31,165 nucleotides of DNA from a virus (taxonomy: Duplodnaviria; Heunggongvirae; Uroviricota; Caudoviricetes), in IMG/VR virus record IMGVR_UViG_2541047931_000001; one strand, written 5' to 3'. The position numbers were made by a program, and so were the translations under genes. Under the pieces are notes generated by a model. The model was given only the letters and a program-made list of their open reading frames with translations. It made no database searches and was not told where the DNA came from. Shown here in pieces: positions 2,795-31,165 of this stretch. Position 1 is the first letter of the stretch. Every line of letters begins with the position of its first letter.

Positions 2795-3877
2795 TTAGAA
2801 CTGGTAAACCAGACCTACAGCAACGATGTCATCAGTATCAATACCAGCTGTTTTGGTAAACTTACTATCGTCAATTAAGTTGATTTTGTAATCAACAAAA
2901 GTGGACATGTTTTTATTAAAGTAGTAAGTAGCACCGACATCGACATACTTGACTAAGTCTCGGTCACCATGAACACCAAGGTCTTTACCTTTTGACTGAA
3001 GGTAAGCAACAGATGGGCGCAGACCGAAGTCAAACTGATATTGTGCTACTGCTTCAAAGTTTTGTGCTTTGTTTGCAATATGGTTATTACCAAAAACGGT
3101 CATATTCTGAGTTTCAGAATATGTGGTAGCCAGATAGATATTGTTCGCATCATATTTCAGGCCTGCAGCCCATACTTCCGCATTTTTGCCGGAGGCATTG
3201 AATTTGCTCTTACCATAGGCGACCTGACCGTCAGTGCGATCTGATTTAGCATAGGTTGCACCCACGCCGAATCCTTCATACTCATAAGTAGTGGAGAAAC
3301 CGAAACCATCACCATTGGCTTCAGTTACGTCAGTGCGGTCATTTTTACCCTGATACTGAGCAGCAAAGTTCAGGCCATCGACCAGACCAAAGAAGTCGTT
3401 GTTACGATAAGTTGCAACACCAGTAGTGCGACCAGTCATGAACACATCTGTTTGGGTCCAGGTATCACCACCGAATTCTGGCAGGACGTCAGTCCACGCA
3501 CCGATGTCGTATGCTACACCGTAGTTACGGCCGTAATCGATTGAGCCGTAATCACCAAATTTCAGGCCTGCAAATGCAAGACGGGTTTTGTCTTTGGAAG
3601 AACCTTGAGATTCAGCGCGGTTGCCTTTGAATTCATATTCCCACTGACCGAAACCAGTCAGTTGATCGTTGATTTGGGTTTCACCTTTGAAGCCAAGACG
3701 GGCATAAGTAGTATCACCATCATCTGCATCATTAGAGGAGAAGTAGTGCTTAGCATTAACTTTCCCGTACAGATCCAGCTTGTTACTGTCTTTATTATAA
3801 ATTTCAGCTGCCTGAGCAGACATCGCCATCAGTACTGATGCAGCTACAGCAGAAATTGCCACTGTTAATTTTTTCAT
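2795..3877 (-). CDS. nmpC: Outer-membrane general porin, OmpC/OmpF family, NmpC/Lc-type phage moron, 360 aa, apparently intact
   Basis: Signal peptide [23 protein letters not shown], then [16 protein letters not shown] and a C-terminal ...VGLVYQF ending in Phe, as in classical porins. Convergent with Q and located between Q and the lysis genes, as in DLP12/PA-2. Confidence 0.85.
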
Positions 3878-7171: not shown

Positions 7172-7597
7172 TTAGTGCGGAAATATTTGTGTAGTGTTCT
7201 GAATGTTCTCAGTAAAGAGTAATGAATTATCAAAGGTATAGTAATACCTTTTGTTTTCGTGGATATTTGTAATCCATCTGAAAACCCCTGCTGTAGCAAG
7301 ATTTTTCCTGTATTCGTAAAATGATAACTCTCCTGATTTGAATCCTTTTAAGGTGGCTTCTATAAGGCATTTATTTTTTGAAAATCTTACATTTACAACC
7401 TTACCCTGTCCTTTTATTAAAACCGTATTATCGTTTTCAAGAACAAGATGAATATTCTCTGTGGCTAAATAGTAAATGTAATGTGAGACATTGTGACGTT
7501 TTAGTTCAGAATAAAACCAGTGATAGTTTAAATTATTTCGCACTTTATCGAATATTTGTTTAAAAATGGCAACCTGAGCCATTGTAGTACCTTCCAT
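7172..7597 (-). CDS. Hypothetical protein, AT-rich, 141 aa (136 aa from the more probable start at 7582)
   Basis: Long ORF in a visibly AT-rich segment. GAAGG SD-like element precedes the second ATG (Met6). It lies 42-57 bp downstream of the RHH gene on the same strand. No recognisable motif. Confidence 0.45.
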
Positions 7598-16056: not shown

Positions 16057-16635
16057 ATGGCCATAAAAGGTCTTGAGCAGGCCGTTGAAAACCTCAGCCG
16101 TATCAGCAAAACGGCGGTGCCCGGTGCCGCCGCAATGGCCATTAACCGCGTTGCTTCATCCGCGATATCGCAGTCGGCGTCACAGGTTGCCCGTGAGACA
16201 AAGGTACGCCGGAAACTGGTAAAGGAAAGGGCCAGGCTGAAAAGGGCCACGGTCAAAAATCCGCAGGCCAGAATCAGGGTTAACCGGGGGGATTTGCCCG
16301 TAATCAAGCTGGGTAATGCGCGGGTTGTCCTGTCCCGCCGCAGGCGTCGTAAAAAGGGGCAGCGTTCATCCCTGAAAGGTGGCGGCAGCGTGCTTGTGGT
16401 GGGAAACCGTCGTATTCCCGGCGCGTTTATTCAGCAACTGAAAAATGGCCGGTGGCATGTCATGCAGCGTGTGGCCGGGAAAAACCGTTACCCCATTGAT
16501 GTGGTGAAAATTCCGATGGCGGTGCCGCTGACCACGGCGTTTAAACAGAATATTGAGCGGATACGGCGTGAGCGTCTTCCGAAAGAGCTGGGCTATGCGC
16601 TGCAGCATCAACTGAGAATGGTAATAAAGCGATGA
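16057..16635 (+). CDS. Z: Tail completion protein Z, 192 aa
   Basis: Size and position as lambda gpZ. Confidence 0.9.
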   Translation: MAIKGLEQAVENLSRISKTAVPGAAAMAINRVASSAISQSASQVARETKVRRKLVKERARLKRATVKNPQARIRVNRGDLPVIKLGNARVVLSRRRRRKKGQRSSLKGGGSVLVVGNRRIPGAFIQQLKNGRWHVMQRVAGKNRYPIDVVKIPMAVPLTTAFKQNIERIRRERLPKELGYALQHQLRMVIKR

Positions 16636-17027
16636 AACATACTGAACTCCGTGCAGCCGTACTGGATGCACTGGAGAAGCATGACACCGGGGCGACGCTT
16701 TTTGATGGTCGCCCCGCTGTTTTTGATGAGGAAGATTTTCCGGCAATTGCCGTTTATCTCACCGGCGCTGAATACACGGGCGAAGAGCTGGACAGCGATA
16801 CCTGGCAGGCGGAGCTGCATATTGAAGTTTTCCTGCCTGCTCAGGTGCCGGATTCAGAGCTGGATTCGTGGATGGAGTCCCGGATTTATCCGGTGATGAG
16901 CGATATCCCGGCACTGTCAGATTTGATCACCAGTATGGTGGCCAGTGGCTATGACTACCGGCGCGACGATGATGCGGGCCTGTGGAGTTCAGCCGATCTG
17001 ACTTATGTCATTACCTATGAAATGTGA
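16632..17027 (+). CDS. U: Tail terminator protein U, 131 aa
   Basis: Size and position as lambda gpU; ATGA overlap with Z. Confidence 0.9.
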
Positions 17028-17034
17028 GGACGAT

Positions 17035-17814
17035 ATGCCAACACCAAATCCTCTGGCACCGGTGAAAGGGGCCGGGACCACACTGTGGGTTTATAACGGG
17101 AGCGGCGACCCTTATGCAAACCCGCTTTCAGACAATGACTGGTCGCGTCTGGCAAAGGTTAAAGACCTGACGCCCGGCGAACTGACCGCTGAGTCCTATG
17201 ACGACAGTTATCTCGATGATGAAGATGCGGACTGGACCGCGACCGGACAGGGGCAGAAATCTGCCGGAGATACCAGCTTCACGCTGGCGTGGATGCCCGG
17301 AGAGCAGGGGCAGCAGGCGCTGCTGGCGTGGATGCCCGGAGAGCAGGGGCAGCAGGCGCTGCTGGCGTGGTTTAATGAAGGTGATACCCGTGCCTATAAA
17401 ATCCGCTTCCCGAACGGCACGGTCGATGTGTTCCGCGGCTGGGTCAGCAGTATCGGTAAGGCGGTGACGGCGAAGGACGTGATCACCCGCACGGTGAAAG
17501 TCACCAACGTAGGACGTCCGTCGATGGCAGAAGATCGCAGCACGGTAACAGCGGCAACCGGTATGACCGTGACGCCAGCCAGCGCTTCCGTAGTGAAAGG
17601 GAAGAGCACCACGCTGACCGTGGCATTCCAGCCGGAAGGCGCAACCGACAAGAGCTTCCGTGCGGTGTCAGCGGATAAAACAAAAGCCACCGTGTCGGTC
17701 AGTGGTATGACCATCACCGTGAATGGCGTTGCTGCAGGTAAGGTCAACATTCCGGTCGTATCCGGTAATGGTGAGTTTGCTGCGGTTGCAGAAATCACCG
17801 TCACCGCCAGTTAA
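17035..17814 (+). CDS. V: Major tail protein V, 259 aa (lambda 246 aa plus a 13-aa in-frame duplication)
   Basis: [33 protein letters not shown]... and the C-terminal Ig-like domain match lambda gpV. Contains a duplicated [13 protein letters not shown] segment. Confidence 0.9.
17284..17361 (+). repeat. Perfect 39-bp direct tandem duplication (2 copies) inside V
   Basis: ctggcgtggatgcccggagagcaggggcagcaggcgctg occurs twice in tandem (17284-17322 and 17323-17361). Confidence 0.85.
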
Positions 17815-17829: not shown

Positions 17830-18252
17830 ATGTTCCTGAAAACCGAATCATTTGAACATAACGGTGTGACCGTCACGCTTTCTGAACTGTCAGCCCTGCA
17901 GCGTATTGAGCATCTCGCCCTGATGAAACGGCAGGCAGAACAGGCGGAGTCAGACAGCAACCGGAAGTTTACTGTGGAAGACGCCATCAGAACCGGCGCG
18001 TTTCTGGTGGCGATGTCCCTGTGGCATAACCATCCGCAGAAGACGCAGATGCCGTCCATGAATGAAGCCGTTAAACAGATTGAGCAGGAAGTGCTTACCA
18101 CCTGGCCCACGGAGGCAATTTCTCATGCTGAAAACGTGGTGTACCGGCTGTCTGGTATGTATGAGTTTGTTGTGAATAATACCCCTGAACAGACAGAGGA
18201 CGCCGGGCCTGCAGAGCCTGTTTCTGCGGGAAAGTGTTCGACGGTGAGCTGA
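17830..18252 (+). CDS. G: Tail assembly chaperone G, 140 aa
   Basis: Size and position as lambda gpG; ends ...PVSAGKCSTVS. Confidence 0.9.
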   Translation: MFLKTESFEHNGVTVTLSELSALQRIEHLALMKRQAEQAESDSNRKFTVEDAIRTGAFLVAMSLWHNHPQKTQMPSMNEAVKQIEQEVLTTWPTEAISHAENVVYRLSGMYEFVVNNTPEQTEDAGPAEPVSAGKCSTVS

Positions 18253-18668
18253 GTTTTGCCCTGAAACTGGCGCGTGAGATGGGGCGACCCGACTGGCGTG
18301 CCATGCTTGCCGGGATGTCATCCACGGAGTATGCCGACTGGCACCGCTTTTACAGTACCCATTATTTTCATGATGTTCTGCTGGATATGCACTTTTCCGG
18401 GCTGACGTACACCGTGCTCAGCCTGTTTTTCAGCGATCCGGATATGCATCCGCTGGATTTCAGTTTGCTGAACCGGCGCGAGGCTGACGAGGAGCCTGAA
18501 GATGATGTGCTGATGCAGAAAGCGGCAGGGCTTGCCGGAGGTGTCCGCTTTGGCCCGGACGGGAATGAAGTTATCCCTACTTCCCCGGATGTGGCGGACA
18601 TGACGGAGGATGACGTAATGCTGATGACAGTATCAGAAGGGATCGCAGGAGGAGTCCGGTATGGCTGA
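18234..18668 (+). CDS. T: T portion of the G-T tail assembly chaperone, expressed by -1 programmed frameshift from G
   Basis: Slippery heptamer G GGA AAG at 18228-18234 in the G frame; the -1 frame continues as ...GKVFDGELSFALKLAREMGRPDW. No independent RBS. Confidence 0.85.
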   Translation: MFDGELSFALKLAREMGRPDWRAMLAGMSSTEYADWHRFYSTHYFHDVLLDMHFSGLTYTVLSLFFSDPDMHPLDFSLLNRREADEEPEDDVLMQKAAGLAGGVRFGPDGNEVIPTSPDVADMTEDDVMLMTVSEGIAGGVRYG

Positions 18669-21240
18669 ACCGGTAGGCGATCTGGTCGTTGATTTGAGTC
18701 TGGATGCGGCCAGATTTGACGAGCAGATGGCCAGAGTCAGGCGTCATTTTTCCGGTACGGAAAGTGATGCGAAAAAAACAGCGGCAGTCGTTGAACAGTC
18801 GCTGAGCCGACAGGCGCTGGCTGCACAGAAAGCGGGGATTTCCGTCGGGCAGTATAAAGCCGCCATGCGTATGCTGCCTGCACAGTTCACCGACGTGGCC
18901 ACGCAGCTTGCAGGCGGGCAAAGTCCGTGGCTGATCCTGCTGCAACAGGGTGGTCAGGTTAAGGACTCCTTCGGCGGGATGATCCCCATGTTCAGGGGGC
19001 TTGCCGGTGCGATCACCCTGCCGATGGTGGGGGCCACCTCGCTGGCGGTGGCGACCGGTGCGCTGGCGTATGCCTGGTATCAGGGCAACTCAACCCTGTC
19101 CGATTTCAACAAAACGCTGGTCCTTTCCGGCAATCAGGCGGGACTGACGGCAGATCGTATTCTGGCCCTGTCCAGAGCCGGGCAGGCGGCAGGGCTGACG
19201 TTTAACCAGACCAGCGAGTCACTGACGGCGCTGGTGAATGCCGGTGTGCGTGGTGGTGAGCAGTTTGAGGCGATCAGCCAGAGTGTGGCGCGTTTCTCCT
19301 CTGCATCCGGCGTGGAGGTGGACAAGGTCGCTGAAGCCTTCGGGAAGCTGACCACTGACCCGACGTCGGGACTGACAGCGATGGCACGTCAGTTCCATAA
19401 CGTGACGGCGGAGCAGATTGCGTATGTTGCTCAGTTGCAGCGTTCCGGAGATGAAGCCGGGGCATTGCAGGCGGCGAACGAGGCCGCAACGAAAGGGTTT
19501 GATGACCAGACCCGCCGCCTGAAAGAGAACATGGGCACGCTGGAGACCTGGGCAGACAGGACAGCACGGGCATTCAAATCCATGTGGGATTCGGTGCTGG
19601 ATATTGGTCGCCCGGACACTGCCCGGGAAATGCTGGAGAAAGCAGAAAAGGCTTTTGATGAGGCGGACAAAAAATGGCAGTGGTATCAGAGCCGGAGCCA
19701 CCGACGCGGTAAAACATCCGCATTTCTTGCCAATCTCCGGGGAGCATGGGAGGACAGAGCGAATGCGCAACTTGGGCTTTCAGCCGCCACGTTGCAGGCC
19801 GATCTTGAAAAGGCCAGAGAGATGGCAGCAAAGGACTGGGCCGAGTCTGAGGCATCACGGCTGAAATATACCGAAGAGGCGCAGAAGGCTTATGAACGCC
19901 TGCAGACGCCGCTGGAGAAATATACCGCCCGTCAGGAAGAACTGAACAAGGCACTGAAGGACGGGAAAATTCTGCAGGCAGATTACAACACGCTGATGGC
20001 GGCGGCGAAAAAGGACTATGAAGCGACGCTGAAAAAGGCGAAACAGTCCGGCGTGAAGGTGTCTGCGGGCGATCGTCAGGAAGACAGTGCTCATGCTGCC
20101 CTGCTGACGCTTCAGGCTGAACTCTGGACGCTGGAGAGGCATGCCGGAGCAAATGAGAAAATCAGCCAGCAGCGCCGGGATTTGTGGAAGGCGGAGAGTC
20201 AGTTCGCGGTACTGGAGGAGGCGGCGCAACGTCGCCAGCTGTCTGCACAGGAGAAATCCCTGCTGGCGCATAAAGATGAGACGCTGGAGTACAAACGCCA
20301 GTTGGCTGCACTTGGCGACAAGGTTACGTATCAGGAGCGCCTGAACGCGCTGGCGCAGCAGGCGGATAAATTCGCACAGCAGCAACGGGCAAAACGGGCC
20401 GCCATTGATGCGAAAAGCCGGGGGCTGACTGAGCGGCAGGCAGAACGGGAAGCCACGGAACAGCGCCTGAAGGAACAGTATGGCGATAATCCGCTGGCGC
20501 TGAATAACGTCATGTCAGAGCAGAAAAAGACCTGGGCGGCTGAAGACCAGCTTCGCGGGAGCTGGATGGCAGGCCTGAAGTCCGGCTGGAGTGAGTGGGA
20601 AGAGAGCGCCACGGACAGTATGTCGCAGGTAAAAAGTGCAGCCACGCAGACCTTTGATGGTATTGCACAGAATATGGCGGCGATGCTGACCGGCAGTGAG
20701 CAGAACTGGCGCAGCTTCACCCGTTCCGTGCTGTCCATGATGACAGAAATTCTGCTTAAGCAGGCAATGGTGGGGATTGTCGGGAGTATCGGCAGCGCCA
20801 TTGGCGGGGCTGTTGGTGGCGGCGCATCCGCGTCAGGCGGTACAGCCATTCAGGCCGCTGCGGCGAAATTCCATTTTGCAACCGGAGGATTTACGGGAAC
20901 CGGCGGCAAATATGAGCCAGCGGGGATTGTTCACCGTGGTGAATTTGTCTTCACGAAGGAGGCAACCAGCCGGATTGGCGTGGGAAATCTCTACCGGCTG
21001 ATGCGCGGCTATGCCACCGGCGGTTATGTCGGTGGCACCGGAAGTCCGGCGCAAATGCGGCGTTCAGAGGGTATCAGGTTTGAGCAGAACAACAACGTGG
21101 TGATTCAGAACGACGGTACGAATGGTCTGCCAGGTCCACAGATGATGAAAGCAGTGTATGACATGGCCCGCAAGGGTGCCCGCGATGAAATTCAGACACA
21201 GATGCGTGATGGTGGCCTGTTCTCCGGAGGTGGACGATGA
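18661..21240 (+). CDS. H: Tail tape-measure protein H, 859 aa
   Basis: MAEPVGDLVVDLSLDAARFDEQMARVRRHF... and the C-terminal ...MRDGGLFSGGGR match lambda gpH; about 6 aa longer than lambda. Confidence 0.95.
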   Translation: MAEPVGDLVVDLSLDAARFDEQMARVRRHFSGTESDAKKTAAVVEQSLSRQALAAQKAGISVGQYKAAMRMLPAQFTDVATQLAGGQSPWLILLQQGGQVKDSFGGMIPMFRGLAGAITLPMVGATSLAVATGALAYAWYQGNSTLSDFNKTLVLSGNQAGLTADRILALSRAGQAAGLTFNQTSESLTALVNAGVRGGEQFEAISQSVARFSSASGVEVDKVAEAFGKLTTDPTSGLTAMARQFHNVTAEQIAYVAQLQRSGDEAGALQAANEAATKGFDDQTRRLKENMGTLETWADRTARAFKSMWDSVLDIGRPDTAREMLEKAEKAFDEADKKWQWYQSRSHRRGKTSAFLANLRGAWEDRANAQLGLSAATLQADLEKAREMAAKDWAESEASRLKYTEEAQKAYERLQTPLEKYTARQEELNKALKDGKILQADYNTLMAAAKKDYEATLKKAKQSGVKVSAGDRQEDSAHAALLTLQAELWTLERHAGANEKISQQRRDLWKAESQFAVLEEAAQRRQLSAQEKSLLAHKDETLEYKRQLAALGDKVTYQERLNALAQQADKFAQQQRAKRAAIDAKSRGLTERQAEREATEQRLKEQYGDNPLALNNVMSEQKKTWAAEDQLRGSWMAGLKSGWSEWEESATDSMSQVKSAATQTFDGIAQNMAAMLTGSEQNWRSFTRSVLSMMTEILLKQAMVGIVGSIGSAIGGAVGGGASASGGTAIQAAAAKFHFATGGFTGTGGKYEPAGIVHRGEFVFTKEATSRIGVGNLYRLMRGYATGGYVGGTGSPAQMRRSEGIRFEQNNNVVIQNDGTNGLPGPQMMKAVYDMARKGARDEIQTQMRDGGLFSGGGR

Positions 21241-27208: not shown

Positions 27209-27808
27209 ATGCGTAAACTTTATGCCGCCATTTTGTCCGCAGCCATTTGTCTGGCCGTATCCGGTGCGCCTGCATGGGCATCTGAACATCAGTCCACGCT
27301 GAGCGCGGGGTATCTTCATGCCTCGACGAACGTTCCCGGCAGCGATAATCTGAACGGGATTAACGTGAAATACCGTTATGAATTTACGGACACGCTGGGG
27401 CTGGTGACGTCATTCAGTTATGCCAATGCCAAAGATGAGCAAAAAACGCATTACAGCGATACCCGCTGGCATGAAGATTCAGTGCGTAACCGCTGGTTCA
27501 GCATGATGGCGGGGCCATCTGTACGCGTGAATGAATGGTTCAGTGCTTATGCGATGGCAGGTATGGCTTACAGCCGTGTTTCGACGTTCTCCGGGGATTA
27601 TCTCCGCGTAACTGACAACAAGGGGAAAACGCACGATGTGCTGACCGGAAGTGATGACGGTCGCCACAGCAACACGTCTCTGGCGTGGGGAGCTGGCGTG
27701 CAGTTTAACCCGACCGAATCCGTGGCCATTGATATTGCTTATGAAGGCTCCGGCAGTGGTGACTGGCGCACTGACGGTTTCATCGTGGGTGTCGGTTATA
27801 AGTTCTGA
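27209..27808 (+). CDS. lom: Outer-membrane protein Lom (Ail/Lom family), 199 aa
   Basis: Signal peptide MRKLYAAILSAAICLAVSGAPAWA, beta-barrel-like alternating pattern, C-terminal ...GVGYKF. Position after J as in lambda. Confidence 0.9.
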   Translation: MRKLYAAILSAAICLAVSGAPAWASEHQSTLSAGYLHASTNVPGSDNLNGINVKYRYEFTDTLGLVTSFSYANAKDEQKTHYSDTRWHEDSVRNRWFSMMAGPSVRVNEWFSAYAMAGMAYSRVSTFSGDYLRVTDNKGKTHDVLTGSDDGRHSNTSLAWGAGVQFNPTESVAIDIAYEGSGSGDWRTDGFIVGVGYKF

Positions 27809-27862: not shown

Positions 27863-27872
27863 TGGAGTGGAT

Positions 27873-30221
27873 ATGGCAGCAGTAAAAATCTCAGGTGTGC
27901 TGAAAGATGGTGCGGGAAAACCAATACAGAACTGCACTATTCAACTGAAGGCAAAGCGTAACAGCACCACGGTACTGGTGAACACGGTGGCCTCTGAAAA
28001 TCCGGATGAAGCCGGGCGTTACAGCATGGATGTCGAGTATGGCCAGTACAGCGTCACCCTGCTGGTTGAAGGTTTTCCGCCTTCACATGCCGGAACCATT
28101 ACCGTCTATGAAGGTTCCAGACCTGGTACGCTGAATGATTTTCTCGGTGCCATGACGGAAGATGATGTCATGCCGGAGGCATTGCGTCGTTTTGAGGCAA
28201 TGGTGGAAGAAGCAGCACGCAACGCTGAAGCCGCCTCTCAGAGCGCAGCGGCAGCAAAGAAATCAGAAACAGCAGCGGCATCATCGAAGAACGCGGCGAA
28301 AACCTCAGAAACGAATGCAGCTAACAGCGCACAGGCGGCAGCGGCCTCGCAGACTGCATCGGCAAACTCCGCGACAGCAGCTAAAAAATCAGAAAACAAC
28401 GCGAAAAATAGCGAGACAGCAGCAAAGACGAGCGAAACCAACGCAAAGTCCAGCCAGGCGGCAGCGAAAACAAGCGAAACGAATGCCAAAACCAGTGAAA
28501 CTGCGGCGAAAAGCAGTCAGGCTGCAGCAGCCGAAAGCGAGAGTGCGGCAGCCGGTTCTGCGACTTCAGCAGCTGGATCAGCAACTGCTGCAGCTAACAG
28601 CCAGAAAGCAGCGAAGACGAGCGAAACTAACGCAAAGTCCAGCCAGACGGCAGCGAAGACCAGCGAAACGAATGCCAAAGCCAGCGAAACTGCGGCGAAA
28701 AACAGTCAGGATGCAGCGGCCCAAAGCGAGAGTGCCGCAGCTGGTTCTGCAAGTGCGGCGGCTTCTTCTGCCACTGCATCAGCCAACAGTCAAAAAGCTG
28801 CAAAAACCAGTGAAACCAACGCAAAGGCGAGCGAGACTGCGGCGGCTAACTCGGCGAAAGCATCCGCTGCAAGCCAGATGGCTGCAAAAGCAAGTGAAGA
28901 CGCAGCCAGAGAGTATGCAAGCCAGGCAGCAGAGCCGTATAAATATGTCTTACAGCCACTGCCTGATGTGTGGATACCGTTTAACGATTCACTGGATATG
29001 CTTGCTGGCTTTTCGCCTGGTTATAAGCAAATAACTGTAGGTGATGATGTTATTAAAATGCCATCCGATAAGGTTGTTAGCTTCAAACGCGCATCAGGTG
29101 CAACATACATTAATAAATCAGGTGTATTAACCGTTGCTGAAGTTGACGAACCGCGATTTGAACGAGAAGGTTTGCTGATTGAAGGACAGAGAACAAACTA
29201 TTTCAGAAATTCAAATACACCAGAAGCATGGAATAACACGGGTAGTGTGTCTGTTGAGTCGTTCGACAGTGATAAGGGGTTTAACTATGGAAGGATAACT
29301 GTTATTAATGAAAATCCGACAGCACAAGGATATCAGGCAATTGCTGTAAACACGAATGATGCTTACACCTGCCCGGCAGGTTCTTATACGACGATATCGT
29401 GTCTGACGAAAAGTGATAATTCCCGGTGTCGTGCAAGGTTCGGAAAAATGTCTGATAATGGTGCGTTTGTTTTTCATTCAGATGCAGCTCTGGATCCTGT
29501 TACGGGAAATGTTGTTCATGGAAATAATGTGACGGTGACGGCAGAAAGAGTCGGTGAATGGTGGTTGTTTACCGCCACTCTTTTTGCAGATGCGGAAATG
29601 ATAATCAGCTCAAGATTTGAAATCCTGGCGATGCCTGGAATCAGTATTATCCCCAATGGCTCTACGTTAGATATTGCGATGCCTCAGGCGGAGATTGGGT
29701 CGTACAGGACGTCATTTATCATTACTGAAGGGGCTCCTGGCACTCGCTCCAGCGACATGGTGACAATACCTGTAAGAAACAATATTCACCGATTACCATT
29801 CAGTGCTCTTGTTGAAGTTAATAAAAACTGGGATATCCCTCCCAGCAAATCACCATTAATCTTTAATGTTAAAGATTATCAGGAAAATGGTCTGTTCACG
29901 CATGGATTCCGTGGTAATAATTTCTCTGATGCCGGTTCTCCTTTTATTTCTATGGGAGGGTGTAATAAATATGTGGCAACAACCCAGAGGAAAATCATTT
30001 CAGGCTTCCGTTGTGGCGCTGATGGAGATGTTCAGGCCGTATGTAATGGTGAATTATCTGTTGCGGCAAAAACAACATGGACTTCAATTGTTCCACGGGC
30101 AGTATTGCGAATTGGAGGGCAGGGCACTAATGGGGAGTATCATCTTTTTGGTCATATCCGTAATCTGCGTATCTGGCATAAAGAATTAACTGATGCGCAA
30201 ATGGGGGAGAGTATTAAATGA
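27873..30221 (+). CDS. stf: Side tail fibre, lambda Stf-like N-terminus, Ala/Ser/Thr-rich fibre repeats, distinct C-terminal domain, about 782 aa
   Basis: MAAVKISGVLKDGAGKPIQNCTIQLKAKRNSTTVLVNTVASENPDEAGRYSMDVEYGQYSV... resembles the lambda Stf N-terminus. GGAG lies 5 nt upstream of the ATG at 27873; the ORF-track start at 27867 is GTG. The C-terminal ~400 aa is non-lambda and ends ...GEYHLFGHIRNLRIWHKELTDAQMGESIK. Confidence 0.8.
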   Translation: MAAVKISGVLKDGAGKPIQNCTIQLKAKRNSTTVLVNTVASENPDEAGRYSMDVEYGQYSVTLLVEGFPPSHAGTITVYEGSRPGTLNDFLGAMTEDDVMPEALRRFEAMVEEAARNAEAASQSAAAAKKSETAAASSKNAAKTSETNAANSAQAAAASQTASANSATAAKKSENNAKNSETAAKTSETNAKSSQAAAKTSETNAKTSETAAKSSQAAAAESESAAAGSATSAAGSATAAANSQKAAKTSETNAKSSQTAAKTSETNAKASETAAKNSQDAAAQSESAAAGSASAAASSATASANSQKAAKTSETNAKASETAAANSAKASAASQMAAKASEDAAREYASQAAEPYKYVLQPLPDVWIPFNDSLDMLAGFSPGYKQITVGDDVIKMPSDKVVSFKRASGATYINKSGVLTVAEVDEPRFEREGLLIEGQRTNYFRNSNTPEAWNNTGSVSVESFDSDKGFNYGRITVINENPTAQGYQAIAVNTNDAYTCPAGSYTTISCLTKSDNSRCRARFGKMSDNGAFVFHSDAALDPVTGNVVHGNNVTVTAERVGEWWLFTATLFADAEMIISSRFEILAMPGISIIPNGSTLDIAMPQAEIGSYRTSFIITEGAPGTRSSDMVTIPVRNNIHRLPFSALVEVNKNWDIPPSKSPLIFNVKDYQENGLFTHGFRGNNFSDAGSPFISMGGCNKYVATTQRKIISGFRCGADGDVQAVCNGELSVAAKTTWTSIVPRAVLRIGGQGTNGEYHLFGHIRNLRIWHKELTDAQMGESIK
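28418..28870 (+). repeat. About 2.4 tandem copies of a 189-bp (63-aa) repeat within stf
   Basis: aagacgagcgaaac(c/t)aacgcaaagtccagccag recurs with a 189-bp period (near 28424, 28613, and diverged at 28802); encodes the ...AAKTSETNAK(S/A)S... fibre repeats. Confidence 0.7.
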
Positions 30222-30508: not shown

Positions 30509-30940
30509 ATGGCTACATCGACAGTAATTCCAGGAGATATCACCACGCTAAAGGGAGATGTCAGTAAAACTAAGGAAGATATTTCCTCAATTAACGGAAA
30601 AGTATCAACGCTTCAGACTGATATGACCAGTGCAAAGCAGGATATCAGCACCAGATACACAAAAACTGAAGTTGATAATAAGCTGAAAAACAAACTGGAA
30701 GTGAACGATCTGGAAAGCGGTCGTTATGGTGGAGATTTTTACCCGTTGACTGGCCGTGAAGCGTTTTATTTGTGGGGATTGGGCACGACTACAGCGGCGG
30801 CAAACCTTTATCTTAATCCTGACCCCGCAATTTCGTCTGTGCTGCGGTCAACATCGTCTATCCGCTATAAACATTCAGTAGAGACAATAGATTCAGAGCA
30901 CGCTGATCTCATTTTCAGGATGCGCCCTGTGTGGTACAGG
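30509..30940 (+). pseudogene. Fibre/spike-like ORF truncated by the IS2 insertion
   Basis: GAGGGAG SD; a coiled-coil-like N-terminus, then SSIRYKHSVETIDSEHADLIFRMRPVWYR, which resembles the start of a peptidase-S74-type intramolecular chaperone domain. The frame continues into IS2 terminal sequence at 30942 and stops shortly after. Confidence 0.5.
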
Positions 30941-30941
30941 T

Positions 30942-31165
30942 TGGATTTGCCCCTATATTTCCAGACATCTGTTATCACTTAACCCATTACAAGCCCGCTG
31001 CCGCAGATATTCCCGTGGCGAGCGATAACCCAGCGCACTATGCGGATGCCATTCGTTATAATGCTCGAACGCCTCTGCAAGGTTCTTTGCTGCCGTTAAC
31101 CCGTCTGGTTTGGGCATGATACTGATGTAGTCACGCTTTATCGTTTTCACGAAGCTCTCTGCTAT
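30942..31165 (-). mobile_element. IS2 (IS3 family), right terminal inverted repeat and 3' part, continuing beyond the window
   Basis: TGGATTTGCCCCTATATTTCCAGACATCTGTTATCACTTAACCC is recognised as the IS2 right end in reverse orientation; the transposase C-terminus is encoded on the minus strand. Confidence 0.85.
30953..31165 (-). CDS. insD: IS2 transposase OrfB (InsD), C-terminal part, 5'-truncated by the window edge
   Basis: ...[70 protein letters not shown] is the characteristic IS3-family integrase-core C-terminus. The frame is open to the window end. Confidence 0.85.

Follow-up and report, generated by a model that had tools for sequence, protein, structure and literature searches.

A probable microhomology-mediated tandem duplication in the tail-tube gene V of a lambda-like prophage of Escherichia coli UMEA 3271-1

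The gene for the major tail-tube protein, V, in a lambda-like prophage of Escherichia coli UMEA 3271-1 carries a perfect 39-bp tandem duplication which, judged from the sequence at its junction, was very probably produced by a microhomology-mediated (slipped-strand) event. The prophage was analysed as a stretch of 31,165 nucleotides (IMG/VR record IMGVR_UViG_2541047931_000001), referred to here as the window, which excludes the integrase and the immunity region. An earlier reading of the same letters, made without database searches (the sequence-only reading), had already recorded the duplication. What the present comparison adds to it is the recurrence of the duplication on at least three backgrounds, the existence of the reciprocal deletion, and the membership of the duplication among many microhomology indels of V.

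Gene V and the duplicated segment

Gene V occupies positions 17035-17814 on the plus strand and encodes 259 amino acids plus a stop codon; it was identified by its open reading frame, by Pfam and by its match to lambda gpV. The mechanically called frame begins at 17005 (269 amino acids), and the ATG at 17035 (259 amino acids), which is the lambda-like start and that of RefSeq, was adopted. The product has the domain composition of a gpV-type protein, with an N-terminal tube domain (approximately residues 1-169; PF16461, E = 3.1e-71) and a C-terminal Ig-like Big_2 domain (approximately residues 170-259; PF02368, E = 1e-19). It is identical to the RefSeq entry WP_021568265.1 ('major tail protein V [Escherichia coli UMEA 3271-1]') and matches the lambda gpV chains 6p3e, 8iyk and 7t4f over its full length, with E values of about 1e-145 (2e-145 for 6p3e_A). 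The surrounding tail genes follow the order Z-U-V-G-T-H (16057-16635, 16632-17027, 17035-17814, 17830-18252, 18234-18668 and 18661-21240) with lambda-like lengths, and the annotation of relatives concurs with this order. The late operon from Nu1 to stf is likewise made up of full-length open reading frames of lambda-like length.

With lambda gpV (PDB 2K4Q, 6P3E, 7T2E, 8K36), window V shares the PF16461 tube and Big_2 Ig-like domains, the Z-U-V-G-T-H gene order and approximately 93-97% identity outside the insert. Unlike lambda gpV, it has 13 extra residues, which form the sole gap of the alignment as one insertion and which duplicate L84-L96 (the end of strand β3, a turn, and the first half of the outer helix). 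This 13-residue duplication was found in no solved structure among the structure matches and in no gpV of a deposited phage (50,697 phage records).

Direct reading of the sequence gives two 39-bp copies of the unit CTGGCGTGGATGCCCGGAGAGCAGGGGCAGCAGGCGCTG on the plus strand, at 17284-17322 and 17323-17361, with 0 mismatches between them; the unit encodes 13 residues that correspond to residues 84-96 of lambda gpV. Tandem Repeats Finder places the array at 17283-17370 (period 39, 2.3 copies, 100% matches, score 176), where it is the top-scoring perfect array within the window. The additional 0.3 copy is the third occurrence of a 10-bp motif, GCTGGCGTGG. This motif is found, always on the plus strand, at 17283-17292 (codons T-LAW), at the duplication junction at 17322-17331 (the mid-point of the 44-nucleotide junction probe described below), and at 17361-17370 (codons L-LAW, then FNEG). 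The array is thus laid out as microhomology, 29-bp spacer, microhomology, spacer, microhomology, and the motif bounds both units at their ends and at the junction, as in microhomology-mediated tandem duplication. By simple arithmetic, the chance of a perfect 39-bp tandem copy is about 4^-39 per position, which is negligible across 31 kb. The unit lies in frame within V and, 39 being a multiple of three, adds 13 residues to gpV.

These observations bear out the sequence-only reading, which had described a perfect in-frame 39-bp tandem duplication at 17284-17361, had placed the 13 duplicated residues in the N-terminal tube domain (by Pfam, the unit falls in PF16461), and had given V as 13 amino acids longer than the 246-amino-acid lambda protein (259 = 246 + 13).

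Other features of the window were observed in passing. A tandem repeat at 28410-28844, within the side tail-fibre reading frame (27867-30221; N-terminal domain PF08400), has a period of 189 bp (2.3 copies, identity 83%) and contains nested periods of 21 and 42 bp; this array in the fibre shaft is older and has diverged. A Lom gene is found at 27209-27808 and a DUF1398 gene at 7172-7597, and a very widespread KilA-N protein is encoded at the left end. A full-length general porin gene (2795-3877, minus strand, noted together with 2207-2605 on the plus strand; PF00267, E = 2e-151), annotated as OmpC in relatives, lies on the opposite strand between the Q antiterminator gene and the lysis genes, and looks like prophage cargo. 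At the right end, an IS2 end starts at 30943, opens with TGGATTTGCCCCTATATTTCCAGACATC and runs to the window end at 31165; this edge is 100% identical to the IS2 edge of E. coli N32. Downstream of the side tail-fibre gene, the reading frame at 30509-30982 runs on into IS2, so that an accessory gene of the tail-fibre region is interrupted, which is a sign of decay.

Origin by strand slippage

The nearest relatives over 3.7 kb are E. coli N32 and 582 (99.6-99.7% identity), and removal of one copy of the unit from window V yields exactly their single-copy V (WP_001530241.1; 741 of 741 nucleotides). An otherwise identical single-copy state with two microhomology arms thus exists, over V in N32 and 582 and over 3.7 kb for two other backgrounds that carry the duplication. 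Because the two copies are identical and window V shows no other change from the single-copy allele, the event is taken to be recent. The sequence-only reading had offered a recent slipped-strand or recombination event as origins, beside an assembly artefact, and had suggested that V be compared in related prophages. That comparison returned identical single-copy siblings as well as the same junction on other backgrounds. The siblings and the threefold microhomology strongly support recent slipped-strand mispairing among the origins offered.

The ancestral V contains two GCTGGCGTGG motifs 39 bp apart, because its protein contains LAW at residues 84-86 and again at 97-99. A nascent strand ending in the downstream GCTGGCGTGG would re-pair with the upstream GCTGGCGTGG on the template, and the 39 bp would then be copied a second time; this slippage step is read from the junction signature. 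The reading frame would be kept, since 39 is divisible by three, and gpV would emerge 13 residues longer. As a class, such duplications are characterised by RecA-independent slippage or template switching during replication and by frequent reversion.

Microhomology-mediated tandem duplication has been shown experimentally and reported across bacteria, and its favoured substrates are long, GC-rich microhomology pairs at short spacing (PMC8639346; bioRxiv 10.64898/2026.02.28.708716). Reciprocal deletion takes place at the same pair, and the duplicated product can collapse back (PMC8639346; bioRxiv 10.64898/2026.02.28.708716). In the known cases and in V alike, a single-copy segment between a microhomology pair has been duplicated head to tail, and no mechanistic difference separates them. 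However, the known cases are subclonal, whereas the V duplication is fixed in natural prophage lineages, and its junction also recurs on several backgrounds.

Two elaborations of this scheme were considered and rejected. A DNA hairpin could assist misalignment, but the sequences between the repeats fold no better than shuffled sequence (z of 0.02 and 0.44), and hairpin-assisted slippage was rejected on these values of about 0. A contingency or phase-variable repeat was rejected because only 0, 1 or 2 copies of the unit occur and because the unit is in frame, so that its gain or loss switches no reading frame. Alleles with three or more copies were found neither among the 120 best homologues nor in the five complete genomes that carry the duplication.

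Distribution and recurrence

The duplication was surveyed with a 44-nucleotide probe across the junction (17305-17348). Each half of the probe gives 27 exact bases against a single-copy V, which is below the 28-base word of megablast, so only carriers of the duplication match. A 60-nucleotide junction probe matches both states, as two overlapping pieces are joined in single-copy genomes, and it serves to count V-bearing genomes only. With the shorter probe the junction was found in 5 of 5,426 complete E. coli genomes; with the longer, approximately 3,424 complete genomes contain the probed part of V, which puts the frequency of the duplication at about 0.15%. The five carriers (SCU-116, MS20673, AH19K002, Eco_23-2678 and B36) come from different laboratories and countries.

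Across collections the junction is present on more than 170 contigs. In a large protein collection, a 17-member UniRef100 entry contains the exact window protein, while 164 contigs carry a second duplication allele and 4 carry a third; three further protein alleles (P0015, P0027 and P0029) have the identical insertion, making 6 distinct alleles in all. The 44-nucleotide probe matched none of 50,697 deposited phage genomes. V is present in 81 phage records, and all 30 among the matches listed span 39 bp less than the query and are therefore single copy. The junction was likewise not found in IMG/VR viral contigs, GTDB species representatives or JGI metagenome contigs. Such absences from phage, viral and metagenome sets are expected for a variant that is carried by about 5 of every 3,424 genomes with V.

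Four of the complete carriers (SCU-116, MS20673, AH19K002 and Eco_23-2678) share an identical V allele, WP_021532037.1, which is also the allele on 164 contigs. In B36 both the allele (WP_129685219.1) and the prophage that carries it are different. Window V differs from the four-genome and B36 alleles at 31 and 41 nucleotides, and those two are 49 nucleotides apart; a fourth background (L011) differs at 27-46 nucleotides, so that differences among the four nucleotide backgrounds number 27-49 in V. All of them agree exactly in the junction and in both copies, and V nucleotides 229-347, around the duplication site, are invariant among alleles. Over 3.7 kb around the B36 allele, single-copy JJ1887, O25b:H4 and many others show 100% identity, and so do single-copy UTI89, NU14, IHE3034 and others over the same distance around the four-genome allele. 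Each of these single-copy siblings matches over 39 bp less than the query.

The simplest reading of these sequences is that the duplication has arisen in at least three separate events, on backgrounds 31-49 nucleotides apart in V. Repeated origin in several E. coli prophage lineages would be understandable because the GCTGGCGTGG pair is the best slippage substrate in the gene. As a separate observation, P0029 (262 amino acids, from an ENA contig of 875 nucleotides) combines the N-terminal domain of the 164-contig allele with a clearly different C-terminal Ig-like domain, which suggests domain-level mosaicism in V.

Short direct repeats and other length variants of V

In the reconstructed single-copy V there are 18 direct repeats of 7 bp or longer within 160 bp, and the GCTGGCGTGG pair comes first among them. 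It is GC-rich, has a 39-bp spacing, and is the longest short-range direct repeat of the gene. The reciprocal product of the same microhomology pair is present in public data: P0073 is a protein of 233 amino acids without L84-L96, and the predicted deletion junction, TTCACGCTGGCGTGGTTTAAT, occurs in L010. The reciprocal 39-bp deletion was not found in complete E. coli genomes.

Several other in-frame length variants of V coincide with direct repeats of the gene. A 19-amino-acid deletion of Q72-E90, seen in 13 clusters, is bounded by the microhomology CAGGGGCAG, which is lengthened to the 10-mer GCAGGGGCAG in the carrying allele. Both a deletion and a duplication of 17 amino acids, T140-S156, are associated with the microhomology GCACGGT, and a further 17-amino-acid deletion, T165-L181, with TGACCGTG. 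Duplications of 12, 17, 30, 39 and 47 amino acids are found among public V homologues (P0024-P0125). A deletion of V131-T157 was also observed in 11 clusters of V homologues. When complete genomes were probed for the 57-bp V deletion no match was found; the alleles are rare, with few contigs each, some of them from Shigella.

These indels of E. coli and Shigella prophages affect the same gene and belong to the same event class as the 13-amino-acid duplication. Most of them, however, remove core strands and must destroy the fold, whereas the duplication retains all native residues and only adds to them, and it is the V variant most likely to stay functional. Read from the junction sequences, the duplication is one member of a predictable microhomology indel spectrum.

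Structural position of the insert

In gpV, the N-terminal domain is a β-sandwich flanked by one α-helix, and in the tube a 24-stranded lumen barrel provides the contacts within each ring, while the N-loop, the 50-78 loop and the C-terminal loop provide those from ring to ring (PMC8718954; PMC10721106). The outer surface of the tail-tube ring consists of the helix and the O-loop (PMC10721106). Secondary-structure limits were taken from these two reviews and from a control AlphaFold2 model of the single-copy sibling. In the control, β3 comprises residues 79-86 and the helix residues 92-102, with pLDDT values of 74-81; the only low-confidence stretches (1-13, 47-77 and 148-158) match loops that are flexible by NMR. 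On this model the duplicated unit runs from the last three residues of β3 through the MPGE turn to the middle of the single helix. The mapping onto the gpV structure that the sequence-only reading had suggested would thus set the insert at the end of a lumen-sheet strand, in the turn and in the outer-surface helix.

In the 259-residue protein, only the first copy adjoins the N-terminal half of β3, and only the second adjoins FNEG, the C-terminal half of the helix. No contiguous stretch can rebuild the native β3-turn-helix, and therefore 13 residues must loop out, on the outside. An AlphaFold2 model of the 259-residue protein, built from the same alignment as the control, loses β3 and, with low confidence in the N-domain, places a strand end at residues 97-99 and the helix at residues 104-115, in the second copy. 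Its pLDDT is 26-35 over residues 71-100, and at β3 and the helix it drops to 30-35 against 74-81 in the control, with a shallow alignment of 33 sequences behind the prediction. By Foldseek, the N-domain TM-scores to the lambda tube (7t2e) are nearly equal, at 0.61 for the duplicated and 0.64 for the control protein, both being monomer models from shallow alignments. The models give a weak hint that the insert destabilises the protein locally and leaves the global fold in place. Impaired gpV folding or tube polymerisation is judged, from these predictions, to lie just on the probable side of even. Tolerance of the insert as a surface loop, for which its outward-facing position would leave room, is put somewhat short of even. 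By our estimate the duplication is a passenger mutation.

Carrier prophages and alternative explanations

The condition of the carrier prophages bears on how the alleles persist. Those with WP_021532037.1 are prophage remnants at icd, in which the integrase is cut by an IS3-family element. The icd remnant (L001, L002, L003 and L005; 1-3000 and 32500-36100) has no early, immunity or replication region, and retains iss and sitABCD beside an apparently intact head and tail module. The persistence of this commonest allele across continents is attributed to hitch-hiking, because the icd prophage cannot excise or replicate. In B36, the tail assembly gene I is interrupted by ISEc23, of the IS66 family (L004, 26187-28603), so this prophage cannot make tails whatever its V. 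The IS2 of the window and the defective state of the carrier prophages are compatible with relaxed selection; relaxed selection in the window itself is not shown, as the full-length reading frames of its late operon count against it. Of the two consequences put forward in the sequence-only reading, altered tail-tube assembly and neutrality in a prophage no longer under selection, either may apply.

The perfect identity of the copies could in principle reflect a single copy in the true genome to which an assembler or a PCR step added a second, an explanation that is scarcely credible here. The source is indeed a draft assembly (a 530-kb contig), and the junction is missing from the phage records, IMG/VR, GTDB species representatives and JGI metagenome contigs. 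An artefact, however, would be expected in a single assembly or from a single technology and not in finished genomes, yet more than 170 contigs carry the identical junction, as do five complete genomes, one duplication allele accounting for 164 of the contigs and the window protein having its own UniRef100 entry of 17 members. Furthermore, the array is only 88 bp long, shorter than a standard short read, so single reads would be expected to span it. These sequence records indicate that the duplication is genuine and make the assembly artefact entertained by the sequence-only reading very unlikely; for UMEA 3271-1 itself, the basis is the UniRef100 entry and the same type of allele elsewhere. 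For a genuine duplication, recurrence might instead be explained by one ancient event that spread among prophages through short-patch homologous recombination or gene conversion. Homologous tail modules number a median of 2 and up to 8-10 per E. coli genome, with donors and recipients co-resident, and within the invariant V nucleotides 229-347 a short tract would be traceless. Nevertheless, three backgrounds each have single-copy siblings with zero differences (over V or over 3.7 kb), and three clean transfers of an allele at a frequency of about 0.15% would be needed. The two copies are also identical on every background, and the ranking of the GCTGGCGTGG pair, the reciprocal deletion and the other microhomology indels fit a mutational hotspot. 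Spread by conversion is accordingly regarded as improbable, and repeated slippage at the GCTGGCGTGG pair as the preferred account.

That the duplication is adaptive, either because the longer gpV builds a working tail with an altered outer surface or because an aberrant subunit benefits the lysogen, appears highly improbable. Several backgrounds share the same in-frame change, one allele is present in isolates from the USA, Australia and St Kitts (164 contigs), the helix is surface-exposed, and complete genomes hold five duplications and zero reciprocal deletions. The widespread allele, however, resides in the icd remnant, which points to hitch-hiking; only two events, and rare alleles, stand behind the contrast of five to none, and other V indels are absent from complete genomes too. 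In addition, fold-destroying in-frame deletions recur in public assemblies, so V is often free of purifying selection, and the duplication is in no sequenced phage (0 of 50,697). A role in defence was also considered: gpV triggers the HigBAC toxin-antitoxin-chaperone system, with the trigger and the escape sites within residues 1-78 (S54P, W67A). These residues are unchanged in window V, which counts against an adaptive role through this trigger, and escape from HigBAC found no support. Equally doubtful is a retained variant whose product enters tubes, whether as a working tube with an enlarged outer loop or as a poison subunit. In the latter case, a superinfecting lambdoid phage would trans-activate the resident late operon, and the aberrant gpV would spoil the tails of that phage and so protect the lysogen population.

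Implications

The V duplication is a natural case of microhomology-mediated tandem duplication caught just after its formation. Its importance is modest and its mechanism an ordinary, known one; public genomes supply its ancestral allele, its reciprocal deletion and several independent recurrences. The indel spectrum of a prophage structural gene is, from this example, largely predictable from its short direct repeats. In comparisons of prophage tail genes, homoplasy should be expected at this site of V, and a shared insertion does not equate to common descent. Should the longer protein retain its ability to polymerise, an insertion-tolerant site on the outer surface of the lambda tail tube would lie at residues 84-99, and such a site, if real, could serve for display.
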